Shown here: positions 889-53,712 of the stretch, one piece after another
Layout of the letters: each line of letters starts with the position of its first letter
How positions within the stretch are numbered: the first letter of the stretch is position 1
Source: Squalus acanthias
Taxonomy: Eukaryota
Length of the DNA: 64,000 bases
Direction of reading: 5' to 3'
NCBI GenBank assembly: GCA_030390025.1
Contig: CM059432.1
Location: 57,538,001 to 57,602,000 of the forward strand
The notes under the pieces: generated by a model
The model's input: the letters and a program-made list of their open reading frames with translations, nothing else
Databases searched by the model: none
What the model was told of the DNA's origin: nothing
Translations under genes and position numbers: made by a program

Positions 889-2181
889 AATCCCACTCGC
901 TTAATTGGTACCCGGTTACTACAGCAGACAACTATATAATTGGTTGTTTAAACCCATGTTTTCCTCTTTAATGGAAATTTGTGTCTGAAACCCAAAATTT
1001 TGGTGTGAATAATGTTTAACAACAGGAATATATTTTGCTCATGTTGTGTTCATCACTCACAAGTTCTTTCAACAAGCCTGCATGTCTGGCCATATTTCAT
1101 GGAAAGCTAAGTTCAGCAACTGGAATCTGGATGTCCTTGTGGATAATGTACTTGAGATGCAGAACTTTTTCTTTGGAGTGAGAGCCAACCTGCAATAAAA
1201 CTCGGGAGGCAGGCAGGGTGGGCAGTGATTTGAGCTTGCATCATTTCAAGGTTCAGGAACCAAAGGCTCTGGAATGATATGCGCAAAAGGTTCTGCAACA
1301 TGAAGTGGGTCGCCGCCATTACTTTTGAATATAACTTATTATACAGGCTCTTTCAGAAAAGAATACACTGGGCTGCAATCATCTGTATTAATGTGCAGCA
1401 ATTTATTTTCTCGACTAAGATAAAACAAGATACTGTTCTCTGCAGCCGAGAGAGTGAGTCCCGAAGGCTGTGTTGCCTGCCCGGTGCCAGGGTAAAGGAC
1501 ATCTCCTCTGGGCTGCAGACAAACTTAGAGTGGGAGGGGAAAGATCCAGTTGTCATGGTCCATGTAGGTACCAACGACATAGGTAGGACAAAGAAAGAGG
1601 TTCTGCTAAGGGAGTATGAGCAGCTAGGGGCTAAATTAAAAAGCAGAACCACAAAGGTAATTTACCCTGGATTACTACCTGAGCCAAGTGCAAATTGGCA
1701 TAGGGTAAATAAGATGAACGAGTGGCTCAAAGACTGGTGTGAGAGAAATGGGTTTCAATTCCTGGGGCACTGGCACCAGTACTGGGATAAGAGGGAGCTG
1801 TGCCGTCGAGTTGGGCTTCATTTGAACCAGGCTGGGGCCAGTGTCCTGGCGCATCGAATAACTAGGGCTGTAGATAGGGCTTTAAAGTAAATAGTGGGGG
1901 GGAGGGATACGCTGAGCGGAAATTAAAAAAGTCAAAGAAAAATGAGAAGGCAAAAGTGCAGGGTAACGATAGGGGTAATGATAACCAGAGTGTGACAGGA
2001 AGGGACAGAGCGTATACACATAAGAGTGCATCAGAAACAGGGGTCAGAGTAGGGAAAAATGGTAAAAAGACAACATTAAAAGCTCTATATCTGAACGCAC
2101 ACAGCATTCGTAACAAGATAGATGAGCTGACAGCCCAAATAGAAATAAATAGGTATGACCTGATAGTCATTACAGAGACGT

Positions 2182-14281: not shown

Positions 14282-15238
14282 TTAGTTTAAAGCCCTATCT
14301 ACAGCCCTAGTTATTCGATTCACCAGGACGCTGGTCCCAGCCCGCTTTAAGTGGAGCCCGTCCCGACGGAACAGCTCCCTCTTTCCCCAGTACTGGTGCC
14401 AGTGCCCCATGAATTGAAACCCCTTTTTCCCACACCACTCTTTGAGCCACGCATTTAACTCTCTGATCTGCTTGACCCTATGCCAATTTGCGCGTGGCTC
14501 AGGTAGTAATCCAGAGATTATTACCTTTGTGGTTCTGCGTATTAATTTAGACCCTAGCTCCTCAAACTCCCTCAGCAGAACCTCATTTTTAGTTCTACCT
14601 ATGTCGTTGGTTCCTACATGGACCATGACAACTGGATCCTCCCCCTCCCACTCCAAGTTATTCTCTAGCCAGGAGGAGATATCCTTAACCCTGGCACCGG
14701 GCAGGCAACACAGCCTTCGGGACTCCCTTTCGCAGCTGCAGAGAACAGTATCTATCCCCCTGACTATACTGTCCCCTACTACTACCACATTCCTTCCTTC
14801 TCCCCCCAATTGGATGGCCCCCTGTACCACAGTGTCGTGGTCAGTTTGCCCATCCTCCTTGCAGTCCTTTTCCTTATCCATACAGGTAGAAAGTACCTCG
14901 TACCTGTTGGACAAGGTCCAGGGCTGAGGCTCCTCCATCACTACATCCTGGGTCCCCATACCTTCCTGACTCGCAGTCACACCCTCCTGTCCCTGACCAC
15001 TGACAAACTCTACAGTACTACTTAACCTAAAGGGTGTGACTGCCTCCTGGAACAAAGTGTCCAGAAAACTCTCCCCCTCCCTAATGCAGCGCAATGTCTG
15101 CAGCTCGTACTCCAGCTCAACAATTCTGAGCCGAAGTTCCTCGAGTTGCAGACACTTACTGCAGATGTGGTTGCTCGGGATCTCGATGCTCTCCACAGAC
15201 TCCCACATGCTGCAGTTACGACACACCTGCCCTGCCAT
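14282..15238 (-). CDS. CR1 ORF1p: zinc finger / leucine zipper plus SGNH (GDSL) esterase domain, 318 aa, uninterrupted
   Basis: CRNC...CSKC followed by heptad leucines; esterase blocks VVGDSIVR, LPGA, VGTND and DGLH. Confidence 0.9.
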   Translation of the reverse strand: MAGQVCRNCSMWESVESIEIPSNHICSKCLQLEELRLRIVELEYELQTLRCIREGESFLDTLFQEAVTPFRLSSTVEFVSGQGQEGVTASQEGMGTQDVVMEEPQPWTLSNRYEVLSTCMDKEKDCKEDGQTDHDTVVQGAIQLGGEGRNVVVVGDSIVRGIDTVLCSCERESRRLCCLPGARVKDISSWLENNLEWEGEDPVVMVHVGTNDIGRTKNEVLLREFEELGSKLIRRTTKVIISGLLPEPRANWHRVKQIRELNAWLKEWCGKKGFQFMGHWHQYWGKRELFRRDGLHLKRAGTSVLVNRITRAVDRALN

Positions 15239-32306: not shown

Positions 32307-33159
32307 CCCCTCTCTTGTTGGGCTTACTACGTACTGGCTAAAAAAGTTCTCCTGAATGTATTTTAAGAATTCTGCTCCCTCTATGACTTTCACACTAATT
32401 TTATCCCAGTTAATATTAGGCAAGTTGAAATCCCCTACTATTACTGTCCTAAATTTTTGCATGTCTCAGAAATTTGCCTACATATTTGCTCTGCTATCCC
32501 CCTCTGACTGATTGTGGGTCTGTAGAACACTTTCAGCAGTGTGACTGCCCCTTTTTTGCTTTTCAGTTCAACCCATATGGCCTCGTTGGATGATTCTTCT
32601 AAGATATCATCCCTCCTCACAGCTGTAATTGTTTCTTTAATCAATATTGCGACTCTTTATCCTGCCTTTCTTTCAGCCATGTCTCAGTAATAGCTATAAT
32701 ATCATACTCCCATGTGTCTATCTGTGCCCTCAGCTCATCTGCTTTATTCCCTAGACTCCTTGCGTTGAAGTATATACCAATTAGCACTGCCAAACTCCCT
32801 TGTTGTCTATTTTCTAGCCTTTGTTTCCTCTGCCTTCCAAACTCGCTTACTAATTTTCTGCCTTCCATTTCCAGCTTTGCTTCTCTACCTTCTGAATCTA
32901 CTCTCAGGTTCCCATCCCCCTGCCAAGCTAGTTTAAACCCTCCCCAACAGCACTAGCATCCTCAAATTTAGAAATTGTGTTTTTGATTCCAATGTCTAAA
33001 TCATTAATATAAATTCTCACATCCCTGTTCTCACATCCCACTTCCCCCTCATCCCACAATCTCTTCTGATTTACAATCTGCACATGGTGTAAGCCTGCAC
33101 CTCTTGCTTTCTCCCCTCCCCTCACCACAACCCTACCCTTGTCCCTTTCTTATTTCAGA

Positions 33160-40454: not shown

Positions 40455-43400
40455 ATAGAGTTATACAGCACAGAAAGAGGCCCTTCAGCACATCGTGTCT
40501 GCACTGGCCATCAAACCCTGTCTATTCCAATCCCATTTACCAGCACTTGGTCCGTAGCCTTGTATGCTATGGCGTTTCAACTGCTCATCTAAATGCTTCT
40601 TGAATGTTGTGAGGGTTCCTGCCTCTACCACCTTTTCAGGCAGTGAGTTCCAGATTCCAACCACCCTCTGGGTGAAAAAGTTTTTCCTCAAATCCCCTCT
40701 AAACCTCCTGCCCCTTACCTTGAAACTATGCCCCCTGGTTATTGACCCCTCTACTATGGGAAAAGTTCCTTTCTATCTACCCTATCTATGTCCCTCATAA
40801 TTTTGTACAGCTCAATCAGGTCCCCCCTCAGCCTTCTCTGCTCCAAGGAAAACAACCCCAGCCTGTCCAGTCTCTCTTCATAGCTGAAGCACTCCAGCCC
40901 AGGTAACATCCTGGTGAATCTCCTCTGCACCCTCTCCAATGCAATCACATCCTTCCTATAGTGTGGCGACCAGAACTGCACACAGTATTCCAGCTGTGGC
41001 CTAACTAGCGTTTTGTACAGTTCCATCATAACCTCCCTGCTCTTATATTCTATGCCTCGGCTAATGAAGGCAAGTATCCCATAAACCATTTTAAACACCT
41101 TATCTACCTGTCCTGCTGCCTTCAGGGATCTTTGTACATGCACACCAAGGTCCCTCTGATCCTCTGTCCTTCCTAGGATCCTACCATTCATTGTGTATTC
41201 CCTTGCCTTGTTAGTCCTCCCAAAATGCATCACCTCACACTTTTCAGGGTTAAATTCCATTTGCCACTGTTCTGCCCATCTAACCATCCCATCTATATTG
41301 TCCTGTAGCCTAAGGCTTCCCTCCTCGCTATTTACCACCCCACCAATTTTCATGTCATCTGCAAACTTACTGATCATACCTCCTACATTCATATCTAAAT
41401 CATTGATGGACACTATAAACAGCAAAGGACCCAGCACTGATCCCTGCGGTACACCACTGGACACAGGCTTCCAGTCACAAAAACAACCTTCGACCATCAC
41501 CCTCTGCCTCCTGCCACTAAGCCAATTTTGGATCCAATGTGCCAAATTGCCCTGGATCCCATGGGCTCTTACCTTCTTGACCAGTCTCCCATGTGGGACT
41601 TTGTCAAAAGCCTTACTGAAGTCCATGTAGACTACATCAACTGCACTACCCTCATCCACACACCTAGTCACCCCCTCGAAAAATTCAATCAAATTGGCCA
41701 GACATGATCTCCACCTGACAAAGCCATGCTGACTATCCCGGATTAATCCCTACCTCTCCAAGTGGAGACTAATTCTGTCCCTCAGAATTTTTTCCAATAA
41801 ATTCCCTACCACTGATGTTAGGCTCACTGGCCTGTAATTCCCTGGTTTATCCCTACTACCCTTCTTGAACAATGGTACTACATTAGCTGTTCTCCAGTCC
41901 TCTGGCACCTCCTCTGTGGCCAGAGAGGTTCTGAAAATTTGTGTCAGAGCCCCTGCAATCTCCTCCCTTGCCTCACACAGCAGCCTGGGATACATCCCGT
42001 CAGGGCCTGGGGATTTATCCACTTTTAAGCCCGCTAAAACCGTTAGTACCTCCTCCCTCTCAATACTAATTTGTTCAAGTCTATCACAATGCCCCTGCCT
42101 GATTTCTATGCCTACATCACCCTTCTCCATATTGAACACAGATGCAAAATATTCATTTAAAACCTCACCTACATCTTCCGGCTCTACAGACAGATTGCCA
42201 CTTTGGTCCCTAATGGGCCCTACTCTTTCTCTGGTTATCCTCTTGCCCTTAATATACTTATAAAACACCTTGGGATTTTCCTTTATTTTGCCCGCCAGTG
42301 TTTTTTCATGCCCCCTCTTCACTCTCCTAATTTCTTTTTTAAGTACCCCCCTGCACTTTCTATACTCCTCTAGGGCTTCCACTGTTTTTAGTCCTTTGTA
42401 TCTGCCAAAAGCCTCCCTTTTTTTCCTAATCCATTCTTGTATATCCCTTGACATCCAGGGTTCCCTGGGCTTGTTGGTCCCACCGTTGACCTTTACGGGA
42501 CCATGTTGGCGTTGTACTCTCTCTATTTCCTTTCTGAAAGACTCCCATTGCTCTGATGTGGATTTTCCTACAAGTAGCTGATCCCAGTCCATTTTGGCCA
42601 GATCCTGCCTTATCATATTAAAATCGCCCTTCTCCCAATTTAGAACCTTTATTTCCAGTCCATCTTTGTCCTTTTCCATGACTACCTTAACTTTCACCGA
42701 ATTATGGTCACTGTCACCAAAATGCTCTCCTACAGACACATCTACCACTTGCCTGGCTACATTCCCTAGAATTAGGTCCAGTACCACCCCCTCTCTTGTA
42801 GGACTTTCTACATGCTGGCTCAAAAAGCTCTCCTGGATGCACTTTAAGAATTCCACACCCTCTAAGCCTTTCACACTCTGACTATTCCAGTTAATATTGG
42901 GGAAGTTGAAATCCCCTACTATTATTACCCTATTATTTCTACACTTCTCTGAGATTTGCCTACATATCTGTGCCTCTATCTCCCCCTGACTGTTTGGGAG
43001 CCTATAGTACACTTCTAGCAAAGTGCTTGCCCCCTTTTTGTTTTTAAGTTCTACCCATATGACCTCATTAGAGGAACCTGCTAAGATATCATCCCTCCTT
43101 ACAGCAGTAATTGACTCCTTGATTAATATTGTGACACCCCCTCCTCTTTTACAACCCCCACTGTCTTGCCTGAAGATTCTATACCCCGGAATATTGAGCT
43201 GCCAGTCCTGCCCCTCCCTCAACCATGTCTCTGTGATAGCAACAATATCATACTCCCATGTGTTCATCAACACCTTCAATTCATCTGCCTTACTCGCAAG
43301 ACTCCTTGCATTAAAATAAATGCCATCCAGTCTTGCCATACTCCCTTGTGCCGTTACATATTTGCTCTGCCTTCCAGGCTGACTTGTTTTTCCCTCTATA

Positions 43401-44845
43401 TTTGGCTGTGCATCACCCCCTACTATAGCTCTACTCCGTACCCCAGCCCCCTGCCAAGTTAGTTTAAACCCCCTCCAACAGTACCAGCAAACCTCCCCGC
43501 AAGGATGTTGGTCCCGTTCCGGTTCAGGTGCAACGCGTCCGACTTGTACAGGTCCCACCTTCCCCAGAAGCAGTCCCAGTGATCCAGTAAACTAAAGCCA
43601 TCCCTCCTGCACCAACTCTTTAGCCACGCATTCATCTGCTCTATCCTCCTATTCCTATACTCACTAGCACGTGGCACCGGGAGTAATCCAGAGATTACAA
43701 CCTTTGAGGTCCTGCTTTTTAATCTGCTACCTAGCTCCCTAAATTCTTGTTGCAGGACCTCATCCCTCTTTCTACCTATGTCGTTGGTACCATTGTGAAC
43801 CACGACCTCTGACTGTTCGCCCTTCCCCTTCAGAATGCCCTGCAGCCGTTCAGTGACATCCTTGACCCTGGCTCCAGGGAGGCAACATACCATCCTGGAG
43901 TCACGTCTGCGGCCACAGAGACGTCTATCTGTTCCCCTTACGATAGAATCCCCTATCACTATTGCTCTCCCACTCTTTTTCCTCCCCTCCTGTGCAGCTG
44001 AGCCACTCGTACTACCATGGACTTGGCTCTTGCTGCATTCCCCTGAGAAACCATCTCCCCCAGCAGTATCCAAAATGGAAAATCTGTTGGAGAGGGAGAT
44101 GGACCCAGGGGACTCCTGCACTACCTTCCTAGTTCTTTTACTCTGTCTGGCGGTCACCCCTTTCCTGTCTGCCTGTGCACTCTTTACCTGCGTTAATCGT
44201 GCTATCCATGAAGATCTCAGCTTCGCGGATGCTCCACAGTGACTCCAGCTGCAGCTCCAGCTCTGAAACGCGGATTTCGAGTAGCTGCAGCTGGAGACAC
44301 TTCCTGCACATGTGTTCGCCCTGGACACCTAAAGTGTCCCTGACTTCCCACATAGCACAGGAAGAGCACTCCATGCTGCCGAGCTGCCCTGCCATGTCCT
44401 ACCCTTAATTTACTCCCTTTACTTCCTTTAAATTAAAAAATATTAAATACACTAGGGACCTTGCTTCACTTTACACACTACTTACTCTAAACTAGAGACC
44501 TTACTTTGACTTTAACGACTAGACTGTAGAAATACTCACCAGGTCCTACTTACCAATCAGCTCCTTCCCTGGTTGTGACATCACTTTAGCGGTTTCGCAG
44601 TTGTTGTTGTTTGCCTGCTCCCGCTCTCGGACTCTTTCCTTGGTGTAAAGTAAGAACCAATTCCCAACTCACAGCACTCTGTTTAAACCGCACTCAGTCT
44701 CTGCGCTCGGTCTCCACCCAGGGCCGCTCTCGCTGCTGCCGCCGGTGAGTCTGGGCCGCTCTCTCTCTCCCCCGCTCTTTAAATCCTCGGTCTCTGCGCT
44801 CAGTCTCCACCCAGGGCCGCTCTTGCTGCCTCTGCTGCCTGCAAT
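40455..44845 (-). mobile_element. Full-length CR1 (5' UTR repeats, ORF1 with a frameshift, ORF2 with few lesions)
   Basis: ORF1 44395-43459 (CSSC..CRKC; IGDSIVR, GTND, DALH); ORF2 pieces of 602, 312 and 68 aa; 5' UTR repeats 44690-44840. Confidence 0.96.
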
Positions 44846-52675: not shown

Positions 52676-53712
52676 GGTGTTTTTGTGACTGGAAGGCTGT
52701 TTCGAGTGGGGTTCTGCAGGGCTCAGTACTAGGTCCCTTGCTTTTTGTGGTATATATCAATGATTTAGACTTCAACGCAGGGGCCATGATTAAGAAGTTT
52801 GCAGTTGATACAAAAATTGGCCGTGTGGTTGATAGTGAGGAAGAAAGCTGTAGGCTGCAGGAAGATATCAATGGACTGGTCAGGTGGGCAGAAAAGTGGC
52901 AAATGGAATTCAATCCGGAGAAGTGTGAGGTATTGCATTTGGGGAGGGATAACAAGGCAAGGGAATACACAATAAATGGTATGATACTGAGAAGTGTAGA
53001 GGAACAGAGGGACCTTGGAGTGCATGTCCACAGATCCCTGAAGGTAGCAGGACAGGTAAATAAGATGGTTAAGAAGGCAAACGGAATGCTTTCCTTTATT
53101 AGCTGAGGCATAGAATATAAAAGCAGGGAGGTTATGCTTGAACTGTATAAAACACTAGTTAGGCCACAGCTAGAGTACTGAGTACAGTTCTGGTCACCAC
53201 ATTACAGGAAAGATCTGACTGCACTAGAAAGGGTACTGAGGAGGTTTACAAGGATATTGCCAGAACTGGAGAATTTTAGCTATGAGGGAAGATTGGATAG
53301 GCTGAGGTTGCTTTCTTTGGAACAAAGGAGGCTGAGGGGAGACTTGATTGAGGTGTATAAAATTGTGAGGGCCCTAGATAGAGTAGATAGGAAGGACCTA
53401 TTTCCCTTAACAGAGAGGTCAATAACCAGGGGGCATAGATTTAAAGTAATTGTTGGAAGTATTAGAGGGGAATTGAGTGGAACTTTTTTCACCCAGATGG
53501 TGGTGGGGGGTCTGGAACTCACTGTTTGAAAGGATGGTAGAGGCAGAAACCCTCATCACATTTAAAAAGTACTTGGATCTGCACTTGAAGTGTCGTAATG
53601 TACAAGGCTGCGGAGCAAGAGCTGGAAAGTGGGATTAGGCTGGATAGCTCTTTCGGCCGACAGACACAATGGGCTGAATGGCCTCCTTCTGTGCCGTAAA
53701 TTTCTATGATAC
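52676..53712 (+). mobile_element. 5'-truncated decayed CR1
   Basis: YINDLD..KKFAVDTKIG, EFNPEKCEVLH; tail ttctatgat. Confidence 0.92.

Follow-up and report, generated by a model that had tools for sequence, protein, structure and literature searches.

A conserved slippery heptamer at the ORF1/ORF2 junction of CR1 retrotransposons in Squalus acanthias points to -1 ribosomal frameshifting as the likely route to ORF2

The window, the whole stretch of 64,000 nt of Squalus acanthias DNA that was analyzed (contig CM059432.1, positions 57,538,001 to 57,602,000), holds a decayed CR1 retrotransposon on its minus strand and three further sites of the same junction type. The features that concern us are as follows.

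43459..44395, minus strand: CR1 ORF1, with a Cys-rich N-terminus and an SGNH/GDSL esterase, from the ATG at 44395 to ...GLN*
43462..43468, minus strand: slippery heptamer U_UUA_AAC, X_XXY_YYZ in the ORF1 frame, the commonest form in 16/16 lineages
43459..43461, minus strand: ORF1 stop codon abutting the 3' side of the heptamer, TAA or TAG in 16/16 lineages
43442..43451, minus strand: G-run, 10 nt beyond the 3' end of the heptamer and a candidate for a stimulator or a pausing element, with GGG kept in 16/16 lineages
43319..43461, minus strand: -1-frame linker, 50 codons from the heptamer, rich in Lys, Arg, Gly, and Ser, unconserved in sequence and leading into the endonuclease
43337..43339, minus strand: in-frame AUG, a lineage-specific rival start that is absent or elsewhere in other lineages
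40485..43468, minus strand: CR1 ORF2, APE endonuclease and reverse transcriptase (Pfam Exo_endo_phos and RVT_1), decayed
1881..1890, plus strand: second junction, T TTA AAG TAA, with a copy-specific C>G change and a 207-nt open linker without AUG
14282..14291, minus strand: third junction, T TTA AAC TAA, with a decayed, out-of-frame linker of 181 nt
32928..32961, minus strand: fourth junction (T TTA AAC TAG) and 5' terminus of a truncated copy, with a 165-nt open linker

The focal ORF1 matches the Pfam family Lipase_GDSL_2 (E=4.8e-14), has its closest named homologues in sharks and rays and others in chimaera and frogs, and is interrupted by a single frame break near codon 65-70. ORF2 is interrupted twice, by a stop at 41752-41750 and by a frame break near 40755; the reverse transcriptase (RT) lies in the same frame beyond the internal stop, and the endonuclease matches L1 endonuclease structures weakly (E about 0.01). 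Both marks looked for in a LINE of the CR1 clade, an SGNH esterase in ORF1 and APE plus RT in ORF2, are present, the assignment to CR1 being by likeness to published CR1 consensus labels.

Re-reading of the sequence confirmed that ORF1 ends in slippery phase, with T TTA AAC at 43468-43462 and TAA at 43461-43459 of the minus strand. Frame 0 closes the ORF1 protein with ...GGGLN*, and the -1 frame reads FKLTWQG... through the heptamer and is open as far as GIYFNARS of the endonuclease. The original prediction gave the ORF2 frame a length of 602 aa; its openness held, but stop to stop it spans 613 aa (41750-43591), and counted from the heptamer it has 572 aa before the internal stop closes it. 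The AUG at 43339, in the context AGT-ATG-G and 7 codons before the Tyr of YxNARS, was absent from that account.

Three other junctions had been named in the window, T TTA AAG TAA at 1881, T TTA AAC TAA at 14291, and T TTA AAC TAG at 32937, and all were found in place. The distance from heptamer to endonuclease is 150 nt in the focal copy and 207, 181, and 165 nt, respectively, in these three. At 1881 the -1 frame is indeed open from the heptamer into the endonuclease, and AAG is a private change; TTTAAAC stands in 28 of 31 sampled copies of the lineage. The copy at 14291 had been described as damaged, and its linker proved to be out of frame. At 32937 the open -1 linker is as claimed; the copy is truncated ~24 nt upstream of the heptamer, keeps almost no ORF1, and is preceded by RT-like sequence from a different element. 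TTTAAA-N-TAA also occurs within the GHRFKV motif at the C-terminus of CR1 ORF2 (53440-53449, plus strand, and 29305-29296, minus strand, in the window), where it is probably driven by the protein and forms no junction. Chicken CR1-C consensus sequences have TTTAAACTAA and then GGAGGG at the ORF2 C-terminal motif.

Copies were gathered with anchors free of the heptamer (an ORF1 motif, the endonuclease start, ORF1 DNA, and ORF1 protein), except in one search that spanned the junction itself and supplied 30 copies of the focal lineage. Loci with an endonuclease start numbered 254, or 249 after removal of duplicates. Grouping placed 182 of these in 16 lineages, each with at least 4 copies, and 4 in pairs; the other 63 stood alone, many as truncated copies. 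The commonest letter in each column was taken as the state of a lineage. The lineages form two deep clades, with amino-acid identity in the ORF1 C-terminus as low as 43%, and they are kin rather than independent observations.

T TTA AAC followed by TAA or TAG was found in all 16 lineages, 26 codons past the D of DGLHL, and T TTA AAC TAA also closes ORF1 in all 20 copies that were collected through ORF1 protein alone. One lineage with intact heptamers in 0 of 4 copies was considered as a counter-example and rejected, TTTAAAC being present in 16 of 20 copies found via an upstream pattern (these 20 include four from the same or neighbouring places). The linkers measure 135, 150, 150, 156, 165, 174, 180, 192, 198, 198, 201, 207, 207, 207, 213, and 261 nt, every one a multiple of 3. 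Their -1 frame is free of stops (0 in 998 codons), compared with 76 in 934 and 123 in 982 codons for the other frames, and ORF2 is in the predicted -1 phase in 16/16 lineage consensuses.

Across lineages the linker sequences are unrelated, with 24% Lys plus Arg. Changes between related lineages are mostly non-synonymous (27 vs 2 in one example), so that only frame and openness are kept, as in a tether. Lineages 5 and 8 have near-identical linker halves on the endonuclease side and ORF1s from opposite deep clades, which suggests that they exchanged ORF1 through recombination within the linker. A second A/T run of the A_AAT_TTA_AAA type, in the ORF2 phase, lies ~40-45 nt 3' of the heptamer in lineages 1, 9, and 10.

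The constraint at the junction acts on nucleotides as well as on residues. Over the last 110 ORF1 codons, fourfold sites differ among lineages by a median of 43% (5-75%), with amino-acid identities of 43-98%; despite this divergence, the free synonymous variation that would speak against a slippery site is absent from the heptamer across the 16 lineages. A single codon is kept at 0 of 26 conserved four- or sixfold-degenerate ORF1 positions, and the terminal Leu is always TTA and the Asn always AAC. The longest invariant run across lineages in 383 nt is the heptamer plus TA (9 nt). The codon before TTA ends in T whichever residue it encodes (G, A, D, or H). By itself this wobble T is unexceptional, since 25 of 110 ORF1 codons have an invariant third base, as do 8 of 31 whose residue varies. 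In the protein test of the -3 residue, 1 of 51 residues cannot end in U, a result equalled by positions -7 and -9 and therefore not decisive.

Genome-wide, the pattern GNNTTTAAACTAR-N8-GGG-N3-G has 31,165 matches against 8 for the reversed control, and the junction pattern is not due to chance. Against these exact matches, a first base other than T was counted at 968 sites (3%; control 26), and variants with a CTN Leu codon occur at 455 sites (control 189). Among 15 CTN loci inspected, 2 were single-base variants of known lineages, 2 were offset matches near normal junctions, 2 were an RT motif, and 9 matched neither ORF1 nor ORF2. As possible counter-examples, two recurring families with CTA-AAY-TAR were examined and set aside, one being the RT motif FADDTKLGG and the other lacking any ORF1 or ORF2 match. 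Copies have decayed less in the heptamer (1.9% per site) than in its flanks (3.4%).

A search for a conserved ORF2 start codon, which would weaken the frameshift reading, found none. In 7/16 lineages there is no AUG between the nearest upstream stop in the ORF2 frame and the first conserved Asn of the endonuclease; in the other 9, AUGs are scattered from 1 to 71 codons ahead of the Tyr with no common position (6-7 codons ahead of the endonuclease in lineages 0, 3, and 4). No near-cognate start codon is common to the lineages. The upstream stop in the ORF2 frame lies only 2 or 6 codons ahead of the heptamer in 15/16 lineages, and this, together with the stretches that lack AUG, indicates that ORF2 is entered at or after the site. 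Two young lineages (99% agreement among copies) include copies whose -1 frame, counted from the heptamer, stays open for 551 and 558 codons; the first Met comes at codons 167 and 256, far inside the endonuclease, whose Asn is at codons 48 and 55. Initiation at either Met would cost the endonuclease its N-terminal part, and with it the stretch that weakly matches residues 15-150 of the L1 endonuclease.

Frameshift sites are commonly accompanied by a stem-loop or pseudoknot that begins 5-9 nt past the heptamer on its 3' side. Among local folds and partners up to about 1 kb away, no such stem-loop was found. For 16 representatives, stable local 3' structure was absent, with fold z-scores of -1.0 to +1.4 (+6..+75) and -2.1 to +1.3 (+4..+123). 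What is conserved is a G-run that begins 7-11 nt past the heptamer: positions +12..+14 are GGG in 16/16 lineages, while in the rest of the linkers GGG makes up 14 of 74 Gly codons, and the codon that follows the conserved GGG varies (GAT, GAG, AAT, GTT, GCT, or TGG). Two alligator-labelled consensus sequences have a G-run at the same 10-nt spacing. G4Hunter-type scores at the G-run range from 0.80 to 3.24 and exceed the element's own 95th percentile in 10/16 lineages. The G-run is a candidate stimulator or pausing element. Its best pairing partner, often ~420 nt upstream in a C-rich part of ORF1 (-11 to -21 kcal/mol), was discarded, as it was the best of about 900 positions and had no control. 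As of 2016, natural use of G-quadruplexes as frameshift stimulators was anticipated, with no known example (PMC5009743).

The junction also coincides with a hot spot of 5' truncation. In 143 endonuclease-anchored copies, alignment breaks peak near the heptamer, and in those broken no more than ~40 nt away from it (29 candidates inspected), tblastn detected no ORF1 immediately upstream. An interval of -40..+25 was then fixed beforehand for testing in 80 new copies. Six had no lineage match and were dropped, as were 11 in which sequence further upstream matched the ORF1 set; this upstream-ORF1 filter also removed some genuine truncations. Clean 5' ends from -450 to +130 numbered 31, and 11 of them fell inside the interval against 4.1 expected (P=0.0014, about 2.7-fold). 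The discovery set, for which the interval was chosen post hoc, gave 14/35 against 4.6 expected after 11 and 30 copies were dropped. The peak may arise from A/T microhomology with the target, from RT pausing at the G-run, or from RNA cleavage at paused ribosomes; microhomology joining is frequent among truncated L2-type inserts (PMC4245944). The CR1 copy whose 5' end lies at 32961 of the analyzed stretch is itself truncated near the slippery site, and a catshark-labelled published consensus starts exactly at the heptamer.

Beyond this genome, 55 homologous ORF1 proteins are complete at the C-terminus, and 51 of them, frog-labelled ones included, end in Leu-Asn. In Supplementary Table 2 of PMC13343379, within the first 400 letters of each sequence, 18 of 23 matches to TTTAAAC plus a stop lie by eye at an ORF1/ORF2 junction, in a search that is biased toward the motif; their labels, as we interpret them, are alligator, crocodile, bearded dragon, bullfrog, coelacanth, bowfin, halosaur, chimaera, sawfish, stingray, catshark, and dogfish. 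A search of the same portion with an upstream motif gave 4 matches, all followed by the heptamer. The codon before TTA in these published consensuses is GCT, CTT, TGT, TAT, GAT, or GGT. Four consensus linkers were counted by eye: those with catshark and chimaera labels are in frame, and those with alligator and lizard labels are off by one, the latter strings appearing frame-broken inside ORF1 too. The -1 phase is therefore established for this genome only. The predicted invariance of TTA, of the preceding wobble T, and of the phase is upheld in Squalus acanthias, less firmly for the wobble T.

No natural lineage with ORF1 and ORF2 in one frame was present among 5 longer homologues. Viral, plasmid, metagenome, and prokaryote collections contained no vertebrate CR1 junctions; they held 7 distant esterase loci, 2 of them bacterial-looking. 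At one of the distant loci, a metagenome contig (L186, ~1320-1330), the esterase ORF1 ends in TGA-CTA, which we take to be a stop-codon readthrough context, in frame with an endonuclease-like ORF (YYNINSLRNK); this is a single copy, and a Met also lies ahead of the endonuclease. Shark-type CR1 ORF1 proteins have been deposited as Pseudomonas aeruginosa and Proteus mirabilis (P0005 and P0073), likely through host contamination, and P0073 reads into the -1 frame.

Judged by its sequence, the junction is a real, conserved feature, and it appears to work like a -1 programmed frameshift site. The heptamer is in the 0 frame, the -1 ORF is open, conservation exceeds what the protein needs, and there is no conserved start; the 3' stem-loop is the one expected sequence element that was not found. 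U_UUA_AAC with an adjoining stop and an open -1 linker that often lacks AUG argues that ORF2 is reached by -1 programmed ribosomal frameshifting, giving an ORF1p-linker-ORF2p fusion, and we hold this to be likely. The frameshift interpretation of the original prediction is accordingly supported at this level, having withstood each of the sequence tests capable of refuting it.

On such a site, tRNA-Leu and tRNA-Asn would slip in tandem from UUA-AAC to UUU-AAA. The majority of ribosomes would terminate at the adjoining stop and release ORF1p, and the esterase-linker-endonuclease-RT fusion would be a minor product. The basic, fast-evolving linker may tie the catalytic domains to an ORF1p that enters the ORF1p multimer on the RNA, and slippage would set the ratio of ORF1p to ORF2p as it does that of Gag to Gag-Pol. 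More tentatively, the pause could come from the adjacent stop and the G-run, acting as a G-quadruplex or through a bound protein, instead of from a stem-loop.

Termination-reinitiation, in which ribosomes would restart independently of AUG on the -1 codon overlapping the ORF1 stop and yield a free ORF2p with the linker as its N-terminal tail, explains equally well why ORF2 is in the -1 phase, why the linker is open, and why an AUG is missing. It has precedents in the UAAUG coupling of SART1 (PMC3708506) and the unconventional initiation of L1 (PMC5009743), and a UAAUG stop-start overlap follows the heptamer in lineage 10 and in some lineage-8 copies. Lineage 10 (L064, L084, L126, L146, and L170) and L137, L224, and L238 carry frameshift and SART1-type restart signals together. 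As a conserved coupling signal, however, UAAUG is the commonest form in only 1/16 lineages, and the overlapping codon is free to vary (ACT, AAT, ATA, GCT, ATT, GTA, AAG, AAA, ATG, or GTT). SART1 coupling moreover requires a downstream structure (PMC3708506), which was not found at CR1 junctions, and a restart does not predict a fixed upstream X_XXY_YYZ; we regard it as unlikely.

Less probable still is that ORF2 starts inside the linker, at an AUG or near-cognate codon particular to the lineage, on a full, spliced, or shorter RNA, with the heptamer incidental. The AUG at 43339 is well placed in the focal lineage, but 7/16 lineages have no AUG, they share no near-cognate codon, and the linker ahead of such AUGs is still open and in phase. 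Several lineages show an acceptor-like CTAAC...CAG|G after the heptamer that would suit splicing, yet the CAG is absent from one entire clade, and among the joints listed (15 of 47, from four contig sets presumed to be RNA) none ends at the junction. At least 3 contigs bridge it unspliced, these also being presumed RNA and contigs being unable to show expression. A shorter RNA would leave 5' ends clustered at the junction, as they are. Equally improbable, in our estimate, is that the motif is fixed by a required Leu-Asn C-terminus combined with a nucleic-acid element, RNA or DNA, that serves packaging, protein binding, or reverse transcription. Leu-Asn does end 51/55 proteins, the truncation hot spot implies that the site matters at the nucleic-acid level, and a similar TTTAAA (read FK) lies near the ORF2 C-terminus, but this explanation leaves the translation of AUG-less ORF2s, the slippery phase, and the adjoining stop unaccounted for.

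Frameshifting into ORF2 has close parallels in viruses. U_UUA_AAC ranks with the most shift-prone heptamers on mammalian ribosomes, and the CR1 heptamer is identical, in the right phase, to that of coronaviruses such as IBV (PMC5009743). As in these viruses and in retroviral gag-pol, a structural ORF lies upstream of a -1-frame polymerase ORF without its own start. Unlike them, CR1 is a non-LTR retrotransposon in which no protease domain was seen; the usual stem-loop or pseudoknot 5-9 nt downstream did not show up in local folding, the 0-frame stop adjoins the heptamer, and a conserved G-run stands ~10 nt downstream instead. In the arterivirus PRRSV, a protein stimulates frameshifting through a C-rich motif that lies about 10 nt past the shift site on the 3' side. 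PRRSV resembles CR1 in having a short linear motif at a fixed distance and no structure, whereas the CR1 motif is G-rich and has no known binding protein, so that the comparison serves as a lead only.

Among LINEs, ORF2 of the APE-type Dictyostelium elements TRE5-A and TRE3-A is said to require a -1 frameshift (PMC5911963), and to describe frameshifting in CR1 as unlike all LINEs would be too strong. These are likewise two-ORF LINEs, but they belong to another clade with another ORF1 type, target tRNA genes, and live in an amoeba. SART1 shares with CR1 a bicistronic mRNA and an ORF2 in -1 phase at the ORF1 stop (PMC3708506), and L1 a bicistronic mRNA with unconventional ORF2 initiation (PMC5009743). 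Both make a free ORF2p, whereas the rule in CR1 is a slippery heptamer, with an AUG at the stop in 1/16 lineages. The canonical vertebrate CR1 described in PMC13343379 has the same esterase ORF1 and APE plus RT ORF2, and its shark consensus families resemble the lineages sampled here.

No report of CR1 frameshifting was found in the openly accessible literature searched, and an older mention in the early CR1 papers is possible. The main text of PMC13343379, as far as available, contains no 'frameshift', 'overlap', 'start codon', or 'slip', and the searched part of its supplement no 'frameshift'; 'frameshift' and 'overlap' are absent from the available text of PMC4120745, the accessible portions of PMC4255032 and PMC3905857 hold nothing on CR1 frameshifting, and the first 300,000 characters of PMC5009743 do not contain 'CR1'.

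ORF2 translation in two-ORF LINEs has been described as unclear (PMC3708506, PMC5009743), and CR1-group elements are the dominant retrotransposons of most vertebrates (PMC13343379). If the frameshift reading is true, this dominant family would have a retrovirus-like expression strategy, its ORF2p would be redefined as a fusion, and CR1 ORF2 annotations that begin at the first AUG would be wrong. The signal at the junction is compact (30 nt), and a fixed G-run standing in place of a stem-loop at a frameshift site would be a candidate for a natural G-quadruplex or protein-dependent stimulator. The truncation hot spot may connect translation or RNA structure with the shape of genomic copies. Taken to its full extent, and here we are tentative and would not yet favor it, the dominant LINE family of jawed vertebrates may have made its RT for >400 million years as a Gag-Pol-like fusion, through a structure-free signal whose pause or G-run leaves a footprint in the truncation of its copies.
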